A stretch of 8,848 bases of DNA, taken from IMG/VR virus record IMGVR_UViG_2579779034_000001. One strand, given 5' to 3'. Both the position numbers and the translations under genes were made by a program. The stretch comes from a virus (lineage: Monodnaviria; Loebvirae; Hofneiviricota; Faserviricetes; Tubulavirales; Inoviridae). Positions within the stretch are counted from its first letter, which is position 1. Each line of letters begins with the position of its first letter. This document shows, one piece after another, positions 1 to 8,445 of the stretch. The notes under the pieces were generated by a model. The model saw only the letters and a program-made list of their open reading frames with translations, was not told the origin of the DNA and did not search any database.

Positions 1-32
1 ATTGGTGCGCATAATGTGCGACTCGTTATGTT
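1..32 (+). other. dif-like XerC/XerD recombination site at the left junction (hybrid attL-like)
   Basis: Positions 5-15 GGTGCGCATAA match the E. coli dif XerC arm 11/11 (dif recalled as GGTGCGCATAA-TGTATA-TTATGTTAAAT). Central 16-21 TGTGCG matches 3/6. The XerD-arm position 22-32 is degenerate (about 5/11). Confidence 0.7.
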
Positions 33-36
33 GAAA

Positions 37-69
37 AGGCCGCTGCGAAAATCGCCTCCGCAGCGGCCT
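37..69 (-). terminator. GC-rich perfect hairpin; possible terminator for the 103..1206 gene and inner stem of a folded attP
   Basis: Stem 37-47 (AGGCCGCTGCG) pairs perfectly with 59-69 (CGCAGCGGCCT), with an 11-nt loop. On the minus strand it lies just downstream of the stop of the 103..1206 gene and is followed by a short T run (plus-strand AAAA at 34-37). Confidence 0.45.
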
Positions 70-75
70 CTTTAG

Positions 76-100
76 CATAACGTCATTGTGCGAACCAATT
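76..100 (-). other. Inverted, degenerate dif-like site (attP2-like)
   Basis: Reverse complement of 76-100 is AATTGGTTCGCACAATGACGTTATG, which resembles site 1 (ATTGGTGCGCATAATGTGCGACTCGTTATG). Positions 1-16 can pair with 84-99 (14/16 Watson-Crick) and 25-30 with 76-81 (6/6). Confidence 0.45.
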
Positions 101-102
101 AA

Positions 103-1206
103 TTATTTTTTGTCTAATATAGCACTGCTTATATTAGAATTCTTAGCTGTAAAAAGCATATCTGCTTCTTGGTATATTTCACCTGAGCCACCACTAAAGT
201 TAAACTCGATGTTTAGGTCATTATAAGTAATGCTTGGAGAGTATTTTCTGCTTATTATAATATAGCCAACTGAATTTGCAGGAACCTCAACCCTTTCTTT
301 CGGTTTTTCCATAAGATATCCATTATCATTAACAAATTCAACATTGTATTTTTTATACACTCTTATTTCTTCATCATCTCTTTTCTTTTCATCTTTATAA
401 TCAAATGTATCAACATGTTCGGAAATATATTGAAAGTTTTTATATATTCTCCATCCGCCTGAAACCTTCAGTACTTCTGATGTTTTGTTAATTATTCTAA
501 ATTTGAACATTATTTGATTTTTTTCTATCTTGGCATCTATTATTTCAATAGGGTATTCATTCGCTCTTAGATTGTAATTTTCAGTTATCAGTCCATTACC
601 TATAGGATTAATCGAAAGCCCAGAATTGTACATATTGTTATAAATCATGTAGTTATATGCTTTCAAGGGGCCCGCGAGAGGGTTGTCTTCTGTTTGGATA
701 CTGATGACCATATAACTGAAAAATGCAGCAAAAATAGCACCACCTAAGATAAAAGAACCTGCACTCGGTGGCACTGAGTCTTTTGAAAGGTATGTTTTCC
801 CGTCAGTATCTTCTGATCTTATGGAAGGCATGGTACTTTTATCAAGAATTCTTGTTCCTTCAATCAAGAGCACCATGGATATTTTTTTATTTGCTAATAT
901 TCTATCTATCTTTACAAAAGAACCTTCGGTAGTTGCATCATGATCACTTGCAATTACAGTACAAGACATACCGTTTGGGACTTTTATTTCTACATTTTTT
1001 TCTTTATCCTTACCTTTATTAAATACTGATGCATTTATTACTATTGCATTGTCAGATATTGAGGTTTTACTTAAGGAGTTCCAGCAGGATAAGTAAAGTT
1101 GTCTTTTCCTAAATATAGATAAAAACTTATTGAGGACTAATGCCACAAAAAAAGAAGTAACTACTTTCAATGTATCAGTAATCAAGTCCGGCATCTTTTT
1201 TCTCAT
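103..1206 (-). CDS. Hypothetical membrane protein, 367 aa, two predicted TM helices; AT-rich phage cargo gene of unknown function
   Basis: A 367-codon ORF in DNA of roughly 32% GC (a sampled 60-nt stretch gave 19 G+C), where stop codons are frequent by chance. Hydrophobic segments at about residues 12-32 and 148-170. No catalytic motif recognised. Weak Shine-Dalgarno. Confidence 0.75.
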   Translation of the reverse strand: MRKKMPDLITDTLKVVTSFFVALVLNKFLSIFRKRQLYLSCWNSLSKTSISDNAIVINASVFNKGKDKEKNVEIKVPNGMSCTVIASDHDATTEGSFVKIDRILANKKISMVLLIEGTRILDKSTMPSIRSEDTDGKTYLSKDSVPPSAGSFILGGAIFAAFFSYMVISIQTEDNPLAGPLKAYNYMIYNNMYNSGLSINPIGNGLITENYNLRANEYPIEIIDAKIEKNQIMFKFRIINKTSEVLKVSGGWRIYKNFQYISEHVDTFDYKDEKKRDDEEIRVYKKYNVEFVNDNGYLMEKPKERVEVPANSVGYIIISRKYSPSITYNDLNIEFNFSGGSGEIYQEADMLFTAKNSNISSAILDKK

Positions 1207-1273
1207 TTTACTTAAAATCCAGTGTTTTAACTGATCAAAGATGGTCAGATAAAATGCAAAAATTTAGTATTTG

Positions 1274-1304
1274 AATATTACCCTAGTTAACCTAGGGTAA
1301 TATT
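1274..1304. promoter_or_regulatory. Perfect 13-bp inverted repeat with 5-bp spacer (operator-like palindrome) upstream of the 367-aa cargo gene
   Basis: Arm 1274-1286 AATATTACCCTAG and arm 1292-1304 CTAGGGTAATATT are exact reverse complements; spacer TTAAC. No adjacent T tract on either strand, so an operator is more likely than a terminator. Confidence 0.5.
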
Positions 1305-1310
1305 ATATCA
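1302..1310 (-). promoter_or_regulatory. Candidate extended -10 promoter element (TGATATAAT) for the 103..1206 gene
   Basis: Minus-strand sequence TGATATAAT at plus 1302-1310 fits TGnTATAAT. Its TGA is the stop codon of the upstream 139-aa gene. The palindrome 1274-1304 covers the predicted +1 region. Confidence 0.35.
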
Positions 1311-1727
1311 ATAATATGAATTTCTTCGGTGCCACCAATAAAGTAGACCGTATCCGACGATAAGAATCCCAAAAAATATCAGAGACATTCCCCAGCCAGT
1401 TCCGTACCACGAAACCATATCATCGAAAACCAACCCACCCGTTTCACGTACTCCGGCAGCTTCCTTAAGAATTGGTTTGAATACCGGAATCAGAAGGGCG
1501 ATCGCCAGTGGGGCACCCCAGCGAACAAGACCTGTTTCCATTTTGATCCCGAAAAAGATCCCCGCACCGACAACAAGCAACCAGACTATCAGGCCAGGCG
1601 CAGTTTCCAGTGCTGTTTGCCATTCAACATCGAAAGTTTTCATTAGCCAGGCAACAACTGCCAGACAGAAAGCAAATACGCCCACGACAACCAGTTCAAC
1701 GCCGCTTGTTTCGTTATTTCTACTCAT
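1308..1727 (-). CDS. Hypothetical small integral membrane protein, 139 aa, about four TM helices
   Basis: ORF with four hydrophobic stretches. Good RBS on the minus strand (AAGGA about 8 nt before the ATG). GC about 52% in a sampled stretch, clearly higher than neighbours. The antisense ORF 1477..1767 is shorter and judged spurious. Confidence 0.65.
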   Translation of the reverse strand: MSRNNETSGVELVVVGVFAFCLAVVAWLMKTFDVEWQTALETAPGLIVWLLVVGAGIFFGIKMETGLVRWGAPLAIALLIPVFKPILKEAAGVRETGGLVFDDMVSWYGTGWGMSLIFFGILIVGYGLLYWWHRRNSYY

Positions 1728-2125: not shown

Positions 2126-2167
2126 GTGTTAGTAAGTCGTCATTTTTGCAATTTTGAGGATTTATTC

Positions 2168-3220
2168 GTGATCGATTGGCTTACCGGGATTTTCCCTTGC
2201 ACACACAAACCGCTTCCGGCGGGGAGTGTTGTCAGCGTTGATGCTGACGGTGCAATTGAGTGGGAAACCGTTAAGCGACTGACTGTTCGCGGCTCGCATG
2301 AAGCAACGATGAAAGTACGATCGATAGGATCTAATGGCGAAGGTAAAGCGACACATTTGTACATTGATGGTAATCCTTCCAAGTTTCTGCAGGGGCATTC
2401 TGTTGTTGGGTCGGATGATATACAAGGGCTCATGTTGACGGTCTATGCCAGGATTTTATCCTTATTGAATATTCCTCATGATTTAGCGTCTTATAAAGCC
2501 GTTATGGCAGGTCAGTATAAAATTTCACGTGTTGACATTAATTACATGTATTCATTATCTACGCTGGAAAATGTCAGATCATGGCTTTATGCCGCCGAAT
2601 TTAAAGCTAAAACACGCCATGGTCGCGCATGTGGGAAAGGCGGTACAGTTTATTTAGGTAAAAACTCCCGTCGATGGAGTCTGAAATTTTATTCAAAATA
2701 TGATGAACACGTTTCTGGTAAAAAAGGGCACCAGATAGCCGAAGAGTTTGTACGAGCCGGGTTACTGGACTGGACGAAAGATAAATTACGTATTGAATTA
2801 ACATTAAGAACAACTGAGCTTATTGATTTAAATTTAACGCTTGGCGCTAACTGGAATATGAAAACACCACGTCAATTATTCTCTGAATATGTAGGGAGAA
2901 TAGAAATGAATCAGAATGCTATTTTAAGTGATGAAAAAATAACGAAACTGCCAAGAAAAATACAGTCAACTTATTTACTTTGGAAACAAGGGGCTAACAT
3001 GAAAGAAATGTTACCTCATAACACTTTTTATCGCCATAGAAGAGAATTGCTTTCGTTCGGTATCGATATTAATTTCTATTGTGATTCACCAGACTCTAAT
3101 AACGTTGTTCCGCTAATAAGAACGCTGGAAGCCAAGCCAGCGGAAATCCCCTTATGGATTTATGAGAAAGGTTTTATTTTCGATTACAACCGTATTTCGC
3201 ACGCCAGTAGCTGGCATTAA
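2168..3220 (+). CDS. gII: Replication initiation protein, pII-like rolling-circle nickase
   Basis: GTG start at 2168 preceded by RBS TGAGGA (2155-2160). N-terminus (M)IDWLTGIFPC aligns with M13 pII MIDMLVLRLPF as recalled. Internal matches PSKFLQGHSVVGSDD vs PAKVLQGHNVFGTTD and NNVVPLIR vs NNVVPLVR. The ORF track's longer start at 2126 overlaps the iterons and is less likely. Confidence 0.85.
   Translation: MIDWLTGIFPCTHKPLPAGSVVSVDADGAIEWETVKRLTVRGSHEATMKVRSIGSNGEGKATHLYIDGNPSKFLQGHSVVGSDDIQGLMLTVYARILSLLNIPHDLASYKAVMAGQYKISRVDINYMYSLSTLENVRSWLYAAEFKAKTRHGRACGKGGTVYLGKNSRRWSLKFYSKYDEHVSGKKGHQIAEEFVRAGLLDWTKDKLRIELTLRTTELIDLNLTLGANWNMKTPRQLFSEYVGRIEMNQNAILSDEKITKLPRKIQSTYLLWKQGANMKEMLPHNTFYRHRRELLSFGIDINFYCDSPDSNNVVPLIRTLEAKPAEIPLWIYEKGFIFDYNRISHASSWH
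2906..3220 (+). CDS. gX: Putative nested in-frame pX analog (C-terminal 104 aa of pII)
   Basis: In-frame ATG at 2906 (Met261 of the 2126 frame) preceded by GGGAGA. In Ff phages pX is produced from an internal start of gII. Inferred by analogy only. Confidence 0.35.
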   Translation: MNQNAILSDEKITKLPRKIQSTYLLWKQGANMKEMLPHNTFYRHRRELLSFGIDINFYCDSPDSNNVVPLIRTLEAKPAEIPLWIYEKGFIFDYNRISHASSWH

Positions 3221-3231
3221 AGGAAAGTAAT

Positions 3232-3549
3232 ATGTCTAATTATGGTCTTTTCGTTAAGGGTAAAATGTTGGGAGCCCGCCAACGTAATAAAGTTAATGGT
3301 CAGGGCTATTATAATGAAATTGGTATTGGCCTTGAAATACCTGATGGTTTTGGTGGTACAAAGCAGGATCAAATTATTATTCGAGTTTCTCAGGCTCTCG
3401 TTAACGCAGGTCTAATGAACCAGGCGAATGCTTTCATTGGGAAATTAGTTCAAATTCCTGTCTATGTCCGTGCGTGGTCAATGGAGGGTAGGGAAGGTGT
3501 AACTTATAATGTTTCTTCCGATGGTGGCATCGCAGAGATCAAAGGTTAA
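3232..3549 (+). CDS. gV: Putative ssDNA-binding protein (pV-like)
   Basis: 105-aa ORF immediately after gII with RBS AGGAAAG. The position is conserved in Ff phages; similarity to M13 pV is weak (an R/K-rich segment followed by GxYxNE). Confidence 0.6.
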   Translation: MSNYGLFVKGKMLGARQRNKVNGQGYYNEIGIGLEIPDGFGGTKQDQIIIRVSQALVNAGLMNQANAFIGKLVQIPVYVRAWSMEGREGVTYNVSSDGGIAEIKG

Positions 3550-3551
3550 AT

Positions 3552-3752: not shown

Positions 3753-3995
3753 ATGAAAATTCTGTCTACTGTTAAATATAAAGTTGCTCTGGCTTCAACT
3801 GCGCTTTTTATTTCTGCAAGTTCTTTTGCGGCTGAAGGCGCTACAGGTGGTACTGATTATGCAGGCCAGGCAATGGATGCTTTGTTGACTCAGGCAAATG
3901 ATCTCATTGGTAAAGTATGGCCTGTTGTTGTGGCTGTGGTTGGCGCTGGGCTTGCCATTCGTATTTTCAAAAAATTCTCTTCAAAAGCGGTTTGA
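3753..3995 (+). CDS. gVIII: Major coat protein pVIII precursor (80 aa, signal peptide plus mature coat)
   Basis: Signal peptide ending SFA followed by AEG, an amphipathic and hydrophobic core, and a basic C-terminus KKFSSKAV, closely paralleling M13 pVIII (SFA-AEGDDP ... KLFKKFTSKAS). Confidence 0.95.
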
Positions 3996-4004
3996 ATTTC
4001 ACTC

Positions 4005-4028
4005 AGGGGCACTCGTTGCCCCTTTATT
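4005..4028 (+). terminator. Rho-independent terminator after gVIII
   Basis: Stem 4005-4011 AGGGGCA pairs with 4017-4023 TGCCCCT, 5-nt loop, followed by TTATT. Ff phages have a terminator at this position. Confidence 0.55.
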
Positions 4029-4041
4029 AAAGCGGGTTACT

Positions 4042-5358
4042 ATGAAAAGGAAAATATTAATTCTTTCCGCTGTCCTCATTTCTCCTTTTTCACATGCTGA
4101 GTCATGGGAAAGCATTACTAAATCCACTTATCAAAGTTCTGCCTACGCTGAAAGTAAGCAAATAACCAATCAGGATGGCTCTAAGACAACGGTTTACTAT
4201 ATTGATGCTGCTATGCAGGCCTCCGCTTGTCAGGGTGCTAAATCCAGTGCTCAGAGTGTATTTACTCGGGTTAAACCAACTTATGAGGGTATCTGGCCTG
4301 ATTCTGAATTCCGTCTTGTTTTTACTGGTGATTGTACTTACAGCGATTCACCAGGGCAGAAGGATAAATATTGGTCTTTAACGGCTTATATTGTTGGTAA
4401 TATTCAGCGTTCTGTTCCTGATGAAAAACCTACTGACCCGACACCAGAAGAAATTTGTGAAGCGAAGCCGCCAGAAGAAGGTGTATTTAATAATGTTGAT
4501 TCATATGATGGTGGTCGCTATATCTACTATAACGGCTGTGAATATGAGGCTACTGGTGTCATTGTTTGTCAGGGTGATGGTACTGTTTGCGCTGCAACAT
4601 GGAAGCCTACAGGTGCTGTAGCTGACCCCTCTGATAAACCCTCAACCCCCCAAAATGGCGGTGGTGAGTCCGGTGGTGGTGAGTCCGGTGGTGGTGAGTC
4701 CGGTGGTGGTGAGTCCGGTGGTGGTGAGTCCGGTGGTGGTGAGTCTGGCGGTGGTGAGTCTGGCGGCGGTAGTTCTGGCGGTAGTTCTGGCGGTAGTTCT
4801 GGCGGTAGTTCTGGCGGTGGCTCTAGTGGTTCCAGTCTTTCTAAAGGTGATATTCAGTCTGCGATCGAAGGTGCTTCACCCAAAATAGCCAGCGATATTC
4901 ATGATAAATTAACGGAGAAAGACACTTCATCAGATGATAAAAAAAATGCCGATGAACAAACCAGGAATAATATAAATCGTCTTGACGATTCCATTAACAA
5001 TCTTACGCGGGGGGCTGGCCGTTTTGCTGACCCTTCAGGTGGTGATTCTCGTTATGGAAAGGGCGACTCTGAATTAGATGGCGCTTCTACTTTAGCTGAT
5101 TCTGAATTGGGAATTGAAAAGGATTCTCACGGTGCTTTATGGGAAGCATTTTTAAATAAAGGTGCTATGCTGCCTAATTTGCCCAATGGTAACGGCTGCT
5201 CTGATTTTATTATTTTCCCCGGAGAGGTTTATCAGATTGATATTGGTTGCGATAAATTACTGACTATTAAAGATGTTCTTTCATGGGTTTTTTATTGCCT
5301 TACTTTCTGGTATGTCTTTACTTCTTTAACTTCATTGCTTCGCAAAGGGGGTGAGTGA
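4042..5358 (+). CDS. gIII: Minor coat / adsorption protein pIII (438 aa)
   Basis: Signal peptide [19 protein letters not shown]. Cys-rich segment [26 protein letters not shown] resembles M13 N1 (YEGCLWNATGVVVCTGDETQCYGTW). Gly/Ser-rich linker. C-terminus IDIGCDKL...[17 protein letters not shown] resembles M13 (IDCDKINLFRGV...FMYVFSTFANILRNKES). First ATG after the gVIII terminator. Confidence 0.9.
4657..4836 (+). repeat. In-frame tandem repeats encoding the pIII Gly-rich linker (seven 15-bp GGGES units, then 12- and 15-bp GGSS/GGGSS units)
   Basis: Seven 15-bp units GG(C/T)GGTGGTGAGTC(C/T) from 4657 to 4761, then GGCGGCGGTAGTTCT, three GGCGGTAGTTCT units (4777-4812), and a degenerate tail to 4836. 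Confidence 0.9.
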
Positions 5359-5699
5359 TGCCTTTATTATTAGGTATTCCTGCATTGTTGCGTTTTCTTA
5401 TTGGTCTTGTTCCTTTGTTTATTGGCTATGTGGCGAGTTTTTTAGCTCGACTTGCTACCAGAACAGGATTAATCGCCTTTGCATTGGTCGCATTAATTAC
5501 AACAACTGTTACGCTTTTAATGCAGTACCTTGCTGAGGTCATGTATAACGGTTTACCTGCTGATTTCTCCCATTTAATGGCGTCTGTATTGCCTGACCAT
5601 TTTCAGGCGTGTGTTAACGTTATTATGGTTACTCGTATCAGTGTTTTTGTTTTCGATTTAAAACAAAAATTTCTTGATTATGCAAACAGGGTGATTTAA
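5358..5699 (+). CDS. gVI: Minor coat protein pVI (113 aa)
   Basis: [24 protein letters not shown] closely matches the M13 pVI N-terminus (MPVLLGIPLLLRFLGF) and FDLKQK matches FDVKQK. ATG overlaps the gIII stop (TGATG). Strong RBS AAGGGGGTGAG. Confidence 0.92.
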   Translation: MPLLLGIPALLRFLIGLVPLFIGYVASFLARLATRTGLIAFALVALITTTVTLLMQYLAEVMYNGLPADFSHLMASVLPDHFQACVNVIMVTRISVFVFDLKQKFLDYANRVI

Positions 5700-6794
5700 A
5701 TGGCGGTTTATGTAGTAACAGGCAAATTAGGCTCAGGCAAGACACTTGTTAGTGTTTCCAGAATACAGGAAAGACTTGCTAAGGGTTGTCCTGTTGCCAC
5801 TAATCTTGATCTTAAATTGCATAATATGCCTATGGTTGGGCGTTATGCGAAAAAAACGCGCGTTATTCGCATTCCTGACAAGCCTTCATTAAATGATTTA
5901 CTTGCTATTGGTACTGGGAATACATCTTACGATGAATCCCGTAATGGCCTCCTTGTACTTGATGAATGTGGTACTTGGTTTAATTCCCGCTCATGGGGTG
6001 ATAAAGACAGACAACCTGTTATTGACTGGTTTTTACATGCCAGAAAATTAGGCTGGGATATTATATTTTTGATTCAGGATATTTCGATAATGGATAAGCA
6101 AGCTCGTCTGGCGCTTGCTGAGCATGTTGTTTATTGTCGCCGTTCAGATAAATTAAACATTCCTTTTGTTGGCTCCATTATGAATTTGGTTTCAGGGGCG
6201 AGATTTTCTTTACCAAAGGTACACTTTGGCATTGTCAAATATGGTGATAATGTTAATTCAATCACTGTTGATAAATGGATATATACAGGAAAATCTCTTT
6301 ATTCTGCTTACAATACCAAACAAGCGTTCACAGATAATTATCCTCATGGCGCATTTTCGCTTTTGCCACCATTTATCACGCACGGTCAATTTTCTGTTCA
6401 CAGAGGATTTAATTATTATATGCGCCTCACTAAAATTTATTTTCGCAAATCGAACCGTCTTATATTAATGCTTTCTTTTTTGGCGCTGGGGCTTGCGTTT
6501 GGTTTCTGGCTCCAGTCTGGAAAGAATGTTGATGAAATCTCAGCTATTAAATCTGCTTATGCTGAACAGGCGAGGGCGGTAACGCCTGATTCGTCCAGTG
6601 ACTTACCCCGACTTTCTATTAATTCTTTTTCACAACTTGGCTTTGACGTTTCCGTTACGTTTGTTGATGCAAAAGGTATGAAATATCAGTATTTTGATTT
6701 GATTAAAGATGGTTATTCCGTTGATATTAAAGATGCCTGTCGTGTTGTTATTAGAAAAGGCCGTTATTTACAGACTGTTACCTGTCAGGAGTAA
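5700..6794 (+). CDS. gI: Assembly ATPase pI (Zot-like), 364 aa
   Basis: Walker A GKLGSGKT and Walker B LLVLDECG. Long near-identical stretches to M13 pI as recalled (MAVYVVTGKLGSGKTLVSV, RQPVIDWFLHARKLGWDIIFLIQD, LAEHVVYCRR). C-terminal TM segment. Confidence 0.95.
   Translation: MAVYVVTGKLGSGKTLVSVSRIQERLAKGCPVATNLDLKLHNMPMVGRYAKKTRVIRIPDKPSLNDLLAIGTGNTSYDESRNGLLVLDECGTWFNSRSWGDKDRQPVIDWFLHARKLGWDIIFLIQDISIMDKQARLALAEHVVYCRRSDKLNIPFVGSIMNLVSGARFSLPKVHFGIVKYGDNVNSITVDKWIYTGKSLYSAYNTKQAFTDNYPHGAFSLLPPFITHGQFSVHRGFNYYMRLTKIYFRKSNRLILMLSFLALGLAFGFWLQSGKNVDEISAIKSAYAEQARAVTPDSSSDLPRLSINSFSQLGFDVSVTFVDAKGMKYQYFDLIKDGYSVDIKDACRVVIRKGRYLQTVTCQE
6420..6794 (+). CDS. gXI: Putative nested pXI (in-frame internal start of gI)
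   Basis: In-frame ATG at 6420 (Met241 of pI), the same position as the M13 pXI start (MKLTKIYLKK vs MRLTKIYFRK here), followed by the TM segment. Confidence 0.45.
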   Translation: MRLTKIYFRKSNRLILMLSFLALGLAFGFWLQSGKNVDEISAIKSAYAEQARAVTPDSSSDLPRLSINSFSQLGFDVSVTFVDAKGMKYQYFDLIKDGYSVDIKDACRVVIRKGRYLQTVTCQE

Positions 6795-8136: not shown

Positions 8137-8445
8137 ATGGATTCTTATGGGATTTTATCTGCTCTGGCAGAACGAACGATTACAGCGGAAGAAGCAAAAA
8201 CAATGACACTTGCAGCCAGAAGTTCTTCGGCTCAGGTAAATGAAGCATCACTTGCTCTGTTACTGATTGATAATACTCTGGATGCGATCAAAGCAGCTGC
8301 CAGTGAAGGGAAAGGATACACTTTACTTCCTTCTTATGAGATTTCTGTAAAAGCCATTGATTTAGCAGAAGAATTTTTAAGGAAACAATGCGGCTATGTT
8401 ATTGATAACCAGAATGGCGTAAGGACGGTCTATTGGTTTATATGA
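8137..8445 (+). CDS. Hypothetical protein, 102 aa (accessory)
   Basis: ORF with an Ala/Leu-rich, probably helical N-terminal part; RBS-like GGGGT upstream; no recognisable motif. Confidence 0.55.
   Translation: MDSYGILSALAERTITAEEAKTMTLAARSSSAQVNEASLALLLIDNTLDAIKAAASEGKGYTLLPSYEISVKAIDLAEEFLRKQCGYVIDNQNGVRTVYWFI

Follow-up and report, generated by a model that had tools for sequence, protein, structure and literature searches.

In-frame repeat number variation in the gene III linker of a UPphi-type filamentous prophage

The attachment protein gene (gene III) of the filamentous prophage analyzed here carries a run of short, near-identical tandem repeats, and the locus raises the question of whether the number of these repeats differs between isolates, how such differences would arise, and whether they matter to the phage. 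An earlier note on this DNA had taken the repeat to be a likely hotspot of slipped-strand change, in which gain or loss of units would alter the length of the linker, leave the reading frame intact, and possibly tune infectivity. We analyzed the anatomy of the repeat, the protein that it encodes, its length across complete Escherichia coli genomes, and the phage sequence that flanks it.

The prophage and its attachment protein

The window, meaning the whole stretch of 8848 nt that was analyzed, holds one complete unit of a filamentous (inovirus) prophage. Pfam assignments (Table 1) recovered the Lineavirus order of the core genes II, V, VII/IX, VIII, III, VI, I, and IV. The closest relatives of the structural genes were those of IKe/I2-2, and the gene IV DNA of IKe and PEar was 80% identical to gene IV of the window. 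A 17-nt sequence, ATTGGTGCGCATAATGT, corresponding to the XerC arm of dif, is common to both window ends; a search for E. coli dif allowing up to 3 mismatches returned no match within the window, where the XerC arm and degenerate dif-like sites only were identified. In complete E. coli genomes, homologous prophages were bracketed by hipA and the ydeP-side fimbrial genes and were usually present in at least 2 tandem copies. The accessory ORFs had zero matches in Pfam, PADLOC, and NCBIfam. Judged by its sequence, the window represents a single prophage unit of the UPphi type, an IKe/I2-2-like inovirus integrating at chromosomal dif.

All 3 published diagnostic primers for UPphi901, with sequences taken from PMC7307601, were located in the window, where zero matches are expected by chance: IntCheck_RV at 8164-8183 (+, 20/20), UPphi_shortFW at 4622-4641 (-, 20/20), and UPphi_shortRV at 4172-4191 (+, 19/20). 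We assign the window on these matches to the UPphi viruses as defined by Shapiro and Putonti 2020 in the available text of PMC7307601. Features shared with UPphi, as described there, include core genes like those of IKe/I2-2, a genome end that carries a dif-like site, integration at dif in tandem, accessory ORFs that adjoin dif in reverse orientation, 2 extra ORFs 3' of gene IV, and a number of g3p GGGES repeats that varies between isolates. The window differs from UPphi901, which the same text gives as 7560 nt, in its length of 8848 nt and in its left-arm cargo, a 367-aa ORF. An identity with CUS-1/Ypfphi, along with the label 'puvA' for g3p, was considered and dropped; according to the available text of PMC7307601 only genes II and V resemble Ypfphi, and the UPphi primers match.

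Table 1. Features of the window; positions are nucleotides of the window unless given as residues (aa) of g3p
Feature	Position	Strand	Basis or remark
367-aa ORF, left-arm cargo	103-1206		no family match
Gene II replication protein	2126-3220		Pfam
Gene V ssDNA-binding protein	3232-3549		Pfam
Major coat protein	3753-3995		Pfam
Gene III (g3p/pIII attachment protein)	4042-5358	+	438 aa plus stop; Pfam, PDB, IKe/I2-2/PEar1 identity
g3p signal peptide	aa 1-19
g3p pilus-binding domain	aa 20-128		PDB 4EO0 (IKe G3P), E 1.3e-25
g3p TolA-binding domain	aa 130-195		PDB 4EO1 (IKe G3P), E 4e-25
g3p Gly/Ser/Glu linker	aa 206-265		residues G, S, E only
g3p C-terminal virion-anchor domain	aa 266-438		f1 pIII 8B3O C domain matches aa 375-435
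Alternate-frame ORF, 77 aa, MAVVSP(VVVSP)n...	4655-4888	+	ORF list, translation; most likely a repeat by-product
Seven tandem 15-nt units, GGYGGTGGTGAGTCY (GGGES)	4657-4761	+	Tandem Repeats Finder and unit-by-unit reading
Transitional 15-nt unit, GGCGGCGGTAGTTCT (GGGSS)	4762-4776	+
Three tandem 12-nt units, GGCGGTAGTTCT (GGSS)	4777-4812	+	Tandem Repeats Finder, unit-by-unit reading
Degenerate linker tail, GGCGGTGGCTCTAGT GGTTCCAGT (GGGSSGSS)	4813-4836	+
Gene VI-like protein, DUF5455	5355-5699		Pfam
Zot/gene I	5700-6794		Pfam
Gene IV secretin			last in Pfam-assigned order, after Zot/gene I

A long ORF (3898-5358) overlaps the coat-protein gene, and we placed the true start of gene III at ATG 4042, since RefSeq annotates the same start in homologous prophages. 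The g3p protein matched the Pfam families G3P_pilus-bind (PF21443, 9.7e-25) and Phage_Coat_A (PF05357, 9.4e-06), with zero matches in NCBIfam. It was 53-54% identical to g3p of IKe, I2-2, and Erwinia phage PEar1, and a tblastn search with it identified matches in I2-2, IKe, and PEar phages only, at 53-55%. The attachment-protein layout is complete, with signal peptide, receptor-binding N-terminal domains, and C-terminal anchor. In an AlphaFold2 model with 31 homologs as input, pLDDT was 85-94 at aa 20-200, and a hydrophobic C-terminal helix was present at aa 405-435. At aa 206-267 the pLDDT was 25-29 with zero secondary structure, values that point to a flexible tether, and the repeat is accordingly best described as encoding a predicted disordered link that joins the receptor-binding domains to the C-terminal virion anchor.

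The pilus-binding domain, TolA-binding domain, Gly-rich linker, and C domain occur in the same order in g3p of the lineaviruses IKe and I2-2, whose linkers are also made of tandem units (12, 15, and 27 nt), and a naturally longer linker variant of IKe is known (Bruno and Bradbury 1997, as cited in the available text of PMC7307601). Their units, however, encode GGDT, GGGST, or GGGSS and match each other less closely (70-82% for the most part and 96% in a single block, vs 97-100% in the window), and these phages do not integrate. The pIII protein of the Ff phages (M13/f1/fd) likewise has flexible Gly/Ser/Glu tethers, (EGGGS)n, between receptor-binding and anchor domains, with homology over the TolA-binding and C domains (8B3O, 1TOL, and 1G3P), and the f1 pIII linkers are flexible, disordered, and invisible by cryo-EM (PMC10175506). 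In contrast to the window protein, Ff pIII has 2 linkers, places N1 (TolA-binding) before an unrelated N2 (pilus-binding), and has the peptide register GGGSE instead of GGGES.

Repeat units and the overlapping reading frame

Positions 4657-4836 comprise 180 nt, or 60 codons, in the gene III frame, and both ends fall on exact codon boundaries. Tandem Repeats Finder identified an array of period 15 at 4660-4760 (6.7 copies, 97% matches, score 188) and an array of period 12 at 4765-4818 (4.5 copies, 100% matches, score 108). The latter count exceeds the three 12-nt units of the unit-by-unit reading because the match extends into the end of the unit before them and into the start of the unit after them. 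Seven near-identical 15-bp units followed by 12-bp units, all in frame, had been described in the earlier note, and both the program and the reading in the gene III frame bear this description out.

The 15-nt units 2-5 carry the same base at every synonymous site, which points to recent duplication at the DNA level, beyond mere repetition of a peptide. DNA secondary structure was considered as a driver of slippage, and no convincing hairpin was identified in the repeat: folding was weak for the + strand (-20.4 kcal/mol and a z of -3.1, with a diffuse ensemble) and absent for the - strand (z of -0.2).

The repeat is also read through by an ORF in an alternate frame (Table 1), and its presence, recorded in the earlier note, was confirmed in the ORF list and its translation. 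The GGN-rich repeat lacks stop codons in this frame, which leaves the ORF open. The ORF lies entirely within gene III, whose frame is supported by homology and solved structures, and CCTCAACCCCCCAAAATG, which precedes the ATG of the ORF, contains no Shine-Dalgarno-like sequence. Most probably the ORF arises incidentally from the repeat and does not represent a gene; the label 'spurious' given to it previously, itself drawn by inference, seems reasonable.

Linker length among E. coli prophages

A megablast search with window positions 4350-5150 as the query against 5,426 complete E. coli genomes identified 48 matching genomes, in which the span (801 nt in the query) had 23 distinct lengths from 687 to 870 nt, with all differences being multiples of 3. 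Repeat number therefore varies between isolates, as had been supposed, and is not identical among the related sequences. We fetched 25 loci, from genomes picked for differing lengths, and cut out the linker between conserved anchors, obtaining 23 alleles. Linker alleles of good quality measured 66-249 nt (22-83 aa), and the shortest, at 22 aa, suggests a lower length limit under selection. Differences between the alleles amount to whole units of 15, 12, or 30 nt, and gene III was in frame in every good-quality assembly, so that gain or loss of units changes linker length and keeps the frame, in agreement with the earlier note.

Among other E. coli prophages, the number of GGGES units per allele ranged from 1 to 9, and that of pure GGSS units from 0 to 4. 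In a second haplotype, a GGGSS unit and a GGGES unit form a 30-nt super-unit that is amplified 2 (ECONIH2), 3 (F11 and BH100_2014), 4 (FDAARGOS_1257 and BH100N_2017), or 6 (HB37) times. All alleles keep the linker tail at 4813-4836, in which the second haplotype has a single change of Ser to Phe.

On/off phase variation involves a unit that is not a multiple of 3, and the units here are of 15, 12, and 30 nt. The rate of length change also appears moderate, unlike that of phase variation, because clonal groups keep one length each (12 genomes at 765 nt, 6 at 735, and 5 at 777) and tandem copies within a genome had identical linkers in 8 of 9 cases. The exception was strain 1434, in which one copy is short by one 12-nt unit; frameshifts occur elsewhere in that assembly.

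Some individual alleles could be assembly errors, and repeat collapse or expansion during assembly might be put forward as the source of the copy-number differences altogether. Out-of-frame copies were confined to visibly noisy assemblies; frameshifted copies were present in the noisy long-read assemblies of EC5502 and 1434, and the EC5502 linkers, with their out-of-frame copies, were treated as errors and left out. In a database of 5.8 billion proteins, g3p falls into 2 clusters at ≥90% identity, with 165 and 682 distinct sequences from E. coli, Salmonella, Citrobacter, and Klebsiella and full linkers of 23-72 aa. Many 'partial' members of these clusters start or end inside the repeat; short-read draft assemblies therefore often break there, and individual linker alleles from draft genomes are not trustworthy. 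The 2 BH100 records compared below stem from different sequencing efforts as well, and the difference between them may be a product of separate sequencing runs rather than a true change. As a general account, however, assembly artefact is very unlikely. The 48 complete genomes differ by multiples of 3 and by whole units, independent assemblies of the same clone give equal lengths, and the array, at no more than 249 nt, is below long-read length and is spanned by read pairs. The same phenomenon is found in Sanger-era phage work and in the available text of PMC7307601.

The earlier note had proposed that the linker repeats are a hotspot of length change, and comparisons with the flanking phage sequence uphold this, since unit number differs between prophages without substitutions elsewhere. 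Aligned over all 8848 nt, the window and either AZ184 prophage copy show 0 mismatches and a single gap, of 15 nt. The extra AZ184 unit sits within a run of identical GGTGGTGGTGAGTCC units, a position that agrees with the prediction of slippage. BH100N_2017 and BH100_2014 have 0 mismatches over 8401 nt and are set apart by one gap of 30 nt, and HB37, with the same flanks as BH100, has 2 super-units more than BH100N. ECONIH2, F11, and FDAARGOS_1257, which differ in super-unit number as given above, have identical 3300-nt flanks. Across 23 genomes, chosen for different lengths and so biased towards distinct alleles, we identified 23 distinct linker DNA alleles vs 17 haplotypes with 91 segregating sites in the 3300-nt flank; the haplotype counts leave out strains 1434 and PEC422, in which indels, an IS element, or a deletion made Hamming distances unusable. 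The linker changes faster than substitutions accumulate in the rest of the phage.

SCU-118 and EC23 have the same flanks, and their linkers differ by substitutions and indels and in internal unit order; recombination or gene conversion between alleles is therefore probably an additional process. Such exchange between co-resident or superinfecting phages might even be the main source of the diversity, in place of slippage in situ, given that the prophages lie in tandem arrays, that superinfection is possible (PMC4266046, for Ypfphi), and that EC23 and C10, with flanks 1 nt apart, have similar linkers. The cleanest pairs, however, differ by one contiguous unit or super-unit and by nothing else over 8.4-8.8 kb, which would be a rare outcome of import. 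Recombination also needs pre-existing length variants and therefore is not the origin of the variation, and we regard allele exchange as a highly improbable main source.

Origin and meaning of the length variation

The explanation that we favor, and that we hold as a whole to be quite likely, is a coding minisatellite within a disordered g3p tether, changed by slippage or unequal exchange and free to take many tolerated lengths. The Gly/Ser/Glu tether would link the N-terminal pilus-binding and TolA-binding domains to the C-terminal domain in the virion tip. Near-identical 15-, 12-, and 30-nt units would misalign during DNA replication, or recombine unequally, and whole units would be added or removed; with every unit a multiple of 3, the protein frame would be preserved. 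A flexible spacer would tolerate a wide range of lengths, allowing the variants to persist, and the outcome would be a minisatellite changing faster than point substitutions in the remaining phage. Rolling-circle single-stranded replication and tandem prophage arrays may give extra opportunities for gain and loss of units. We infer that replication slippage or unequal exchange between units is the cause and assume that most length changes are nearly neutral.

The features of a coding minisatellite were identified at this locus, with near-identical head-to-tail units and whole-unit differences between otherwise identical relatives. In-frame coding minisatellites (VNTRs) of bacterial surface proteins share the near-identical multiple-of-3 units, the whole-unit polymorphism, and the preserved frame. 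The locus in the window differs from them in belonging to a phage virion protein and in encoding a featureless spacer, not a structured repeat domain.

Selection might instead diversify linker length itself, with length setting the reach of the receptor-binding domains and the repeat acting as an in-frame contingency locus for infectivity or host range; different lengths would then suit different pili, capsule or O-antigen thickness, and periplasm width. No other gene of these phages varies nearly as much as gene III (available text of PMC7307601 and the flank comparisons here), the range of 22-83 aa is large, and the authors of the f1 cryo-EM study propose that long linkers could let up to 5 pIII clamp the pilus (PMC10175506). 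Against this, a naturally longer IKe linker had no selective advantage (Bruno and Bradbury 1997, as cited in the available text of PMC7307601), related lineages retain the linker and not its sequence or length, and decayed prophages with IS1 in gene II (MB51 and PEC422) carry ordinary in-frame alleles. We consider such adaptive tuning unlikely. The proposal that the minisatellite is a functional contingency locus, with unit number setting the reach of the pilus-binding and TolA-binding domains, seems to us quite doubtful, because the only related experiment, in IKe and as cited there, gave a negative result and relatives do not conserve the sequence of the linker. If it were true, adsorption and host range would shift among E. 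coli, Salmonella, Klebsiella, and Citrobacter with different surface layers, and the high indel rate would be selected for, not merely tolerated.

In the wider family, 31 of 31 homologs keep a Gly-rich linker of 13-63 aa with lineage-specific units; this phage has GGGES, IKe and I2-2 have GGGST or GGDT, and GGGDT occurs in Izhakiella and in other relatives from Escherichia/Salmonella. Among GTDB species representatives, 4 loci only were identified, which showed that relatives carry other unit types but were of no use for statistics on copy number. These data suggest selection for a flexible spacer of adequate length and not for a particular sequence. A linker that is kept with lineage-specific units fits repeated local expansion and homogenization, with selection acting on composition only.

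Copy-number variation of the linker is real but was already published for the UPphi phage group in 2020. In the available text, GGGES copy number is the main variation of gene III (Shapiro and Putonti 2020, Virus Evolution 6:veaa030, PMC7307601), 95 g3p protein variants are given for 229 prophages, and the sole difference between the authors' isolates is one extra GGGES repeat in g3p. Relative to that text, the detail added here comprises the 12- and 30-nt units, the 30-nt super-unit haplotype, the range of 22-83 aa, the substitution-free pairs, and the caveat on assemblies.

The linker could serve as a fine-scale typing marker, given read-level checks, which are needed because short-read assemblies often break or miscount the repeat. 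The variation would carry biological weight only if linker length proves to affect infectivity or host range. It explains the hundreds of distinct gene III protein sequences in databases, and the linker changes faster than any other part of this widespread enterobacterial prophage, which apart from it is nearly invariant.

The phage attachment region and its plasmid counterparts

A GC-rich hairpin lies between two dif-like sites in inverted orientation at the left end of the window (1-105). As single-stranded DNA, this stretch was predicted to fold at -30.9 kcal/mol (z -7.2), with none of 200 shuffled sequences equally stable, and it resembles a folded attP of the CTXphi type for XerCD integration.

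Part of this attP-like hairpin region (window 27-97, 71 nt) had matches of ~94% identity in 416 plasmid records, of which 378 were conjugative, mostly from E. coli, with the single plasmid inspected being of IncF type. In plasmid NZ_CP010158.1, a gene of the STM4504/CBY_0614 family immediately adjoined the 71-nt match, and the left-arm cargo of the strain WL297 prophage likewise belonged to this family. On plasmids, this stretch may be a relic of a phage left arm, or it may instead be a mobile cassette.

Accessory cargo of the left arm

The left arm (window 103-1727) was exchanged among prophages that were ~99% identical elsewhere. No match to either of its 2 ORFs in the window was identified in Pfam, PADLOC, or NCBIfam. 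At the same position, the cargo of other strains was a Doc toxin, a PD-(D/E)XK nuclease with DUF6953, a mobilome CxxCx(11)CxxC protein, an ECs_2282 zinc-binding protein, or an STM4504 family protein.

Coordinates of attachment-region, left-arm, and insertion-sequence features (window positions unless a fetched homologous locus, L, is named)
Feature	Position	Strand	Sequence or source
dif-like site 1	~4-35	+	GGTGCGCATAA TGTGCG...
dif-like site 2, inverted relative to site 1	~70-97	-	GGTTCGCACAA TGACGT TATGCTAAA
Accessory left-arm ORF, 367 aa	103-1206	-
Accessory left-arm ORF, 139 aa	1308-1727	-
Plasmid counterpart of window 27-97	L034 3501-3571
ISEcp1 within secretin gene IV, second tandem copy	L002 and L003 ~16900-18500		Strains 1434 and AZ184
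IS1 within gene II	L010 and L025 ~2400-3550		Strains MB51 and PEC422

Integrity and assembly of prophage copies

Some prophage copies were interrupted by insertion sequences, namely ISEcp1 or IS1, and the PEC422 prophage additionally lacked the 3' end of gene III, gene VI, and gene I. The gene III segment was matched in at least 15 places in E. coli EC5502 (NZ_CP092647.1), and in the fetched locus these matches formed a tandem prophage array adjoining the fimbrial/ydeP side of dif. The size of this array and the sequences of its copies are uncertain because the assembly has many frameshifts.

In E. coli KE48 (NZ_CP141085.1), the record that contains the prophage is 385 kb long and bears a plasmid label; the prophage encoded the shortest g3p linker seen, 22 aa. 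It was bordered by genes (a LysR regulator fragment) found beside the chromosomal prophage in other strains. The record may be a piece of the chromosome that was mis-assigned, or else a secondary replicon of large size.

Many g3p database entries were labelled partial, with lengths of ~186-306 aa, and started or stopped within the GGGES/GGSS repeat (proteins P0060-P0073, P0084, and P0086), indicating that short-read contigs commonly end in the 180-nt array.

A circular phage genome in Salmonella enterica

The 7938-bp circular Salmonella enterica record NZ_CP140410.1 was submitted to the database as a plasmid, small and non-mobilizable; its sequence is the complete phage genome, with a Doc toxin as cargo and a linker of 36 aa. 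This molecule is presumably the phage replicative form, which suggests that the phage is active in that Salmonella enterica strain.
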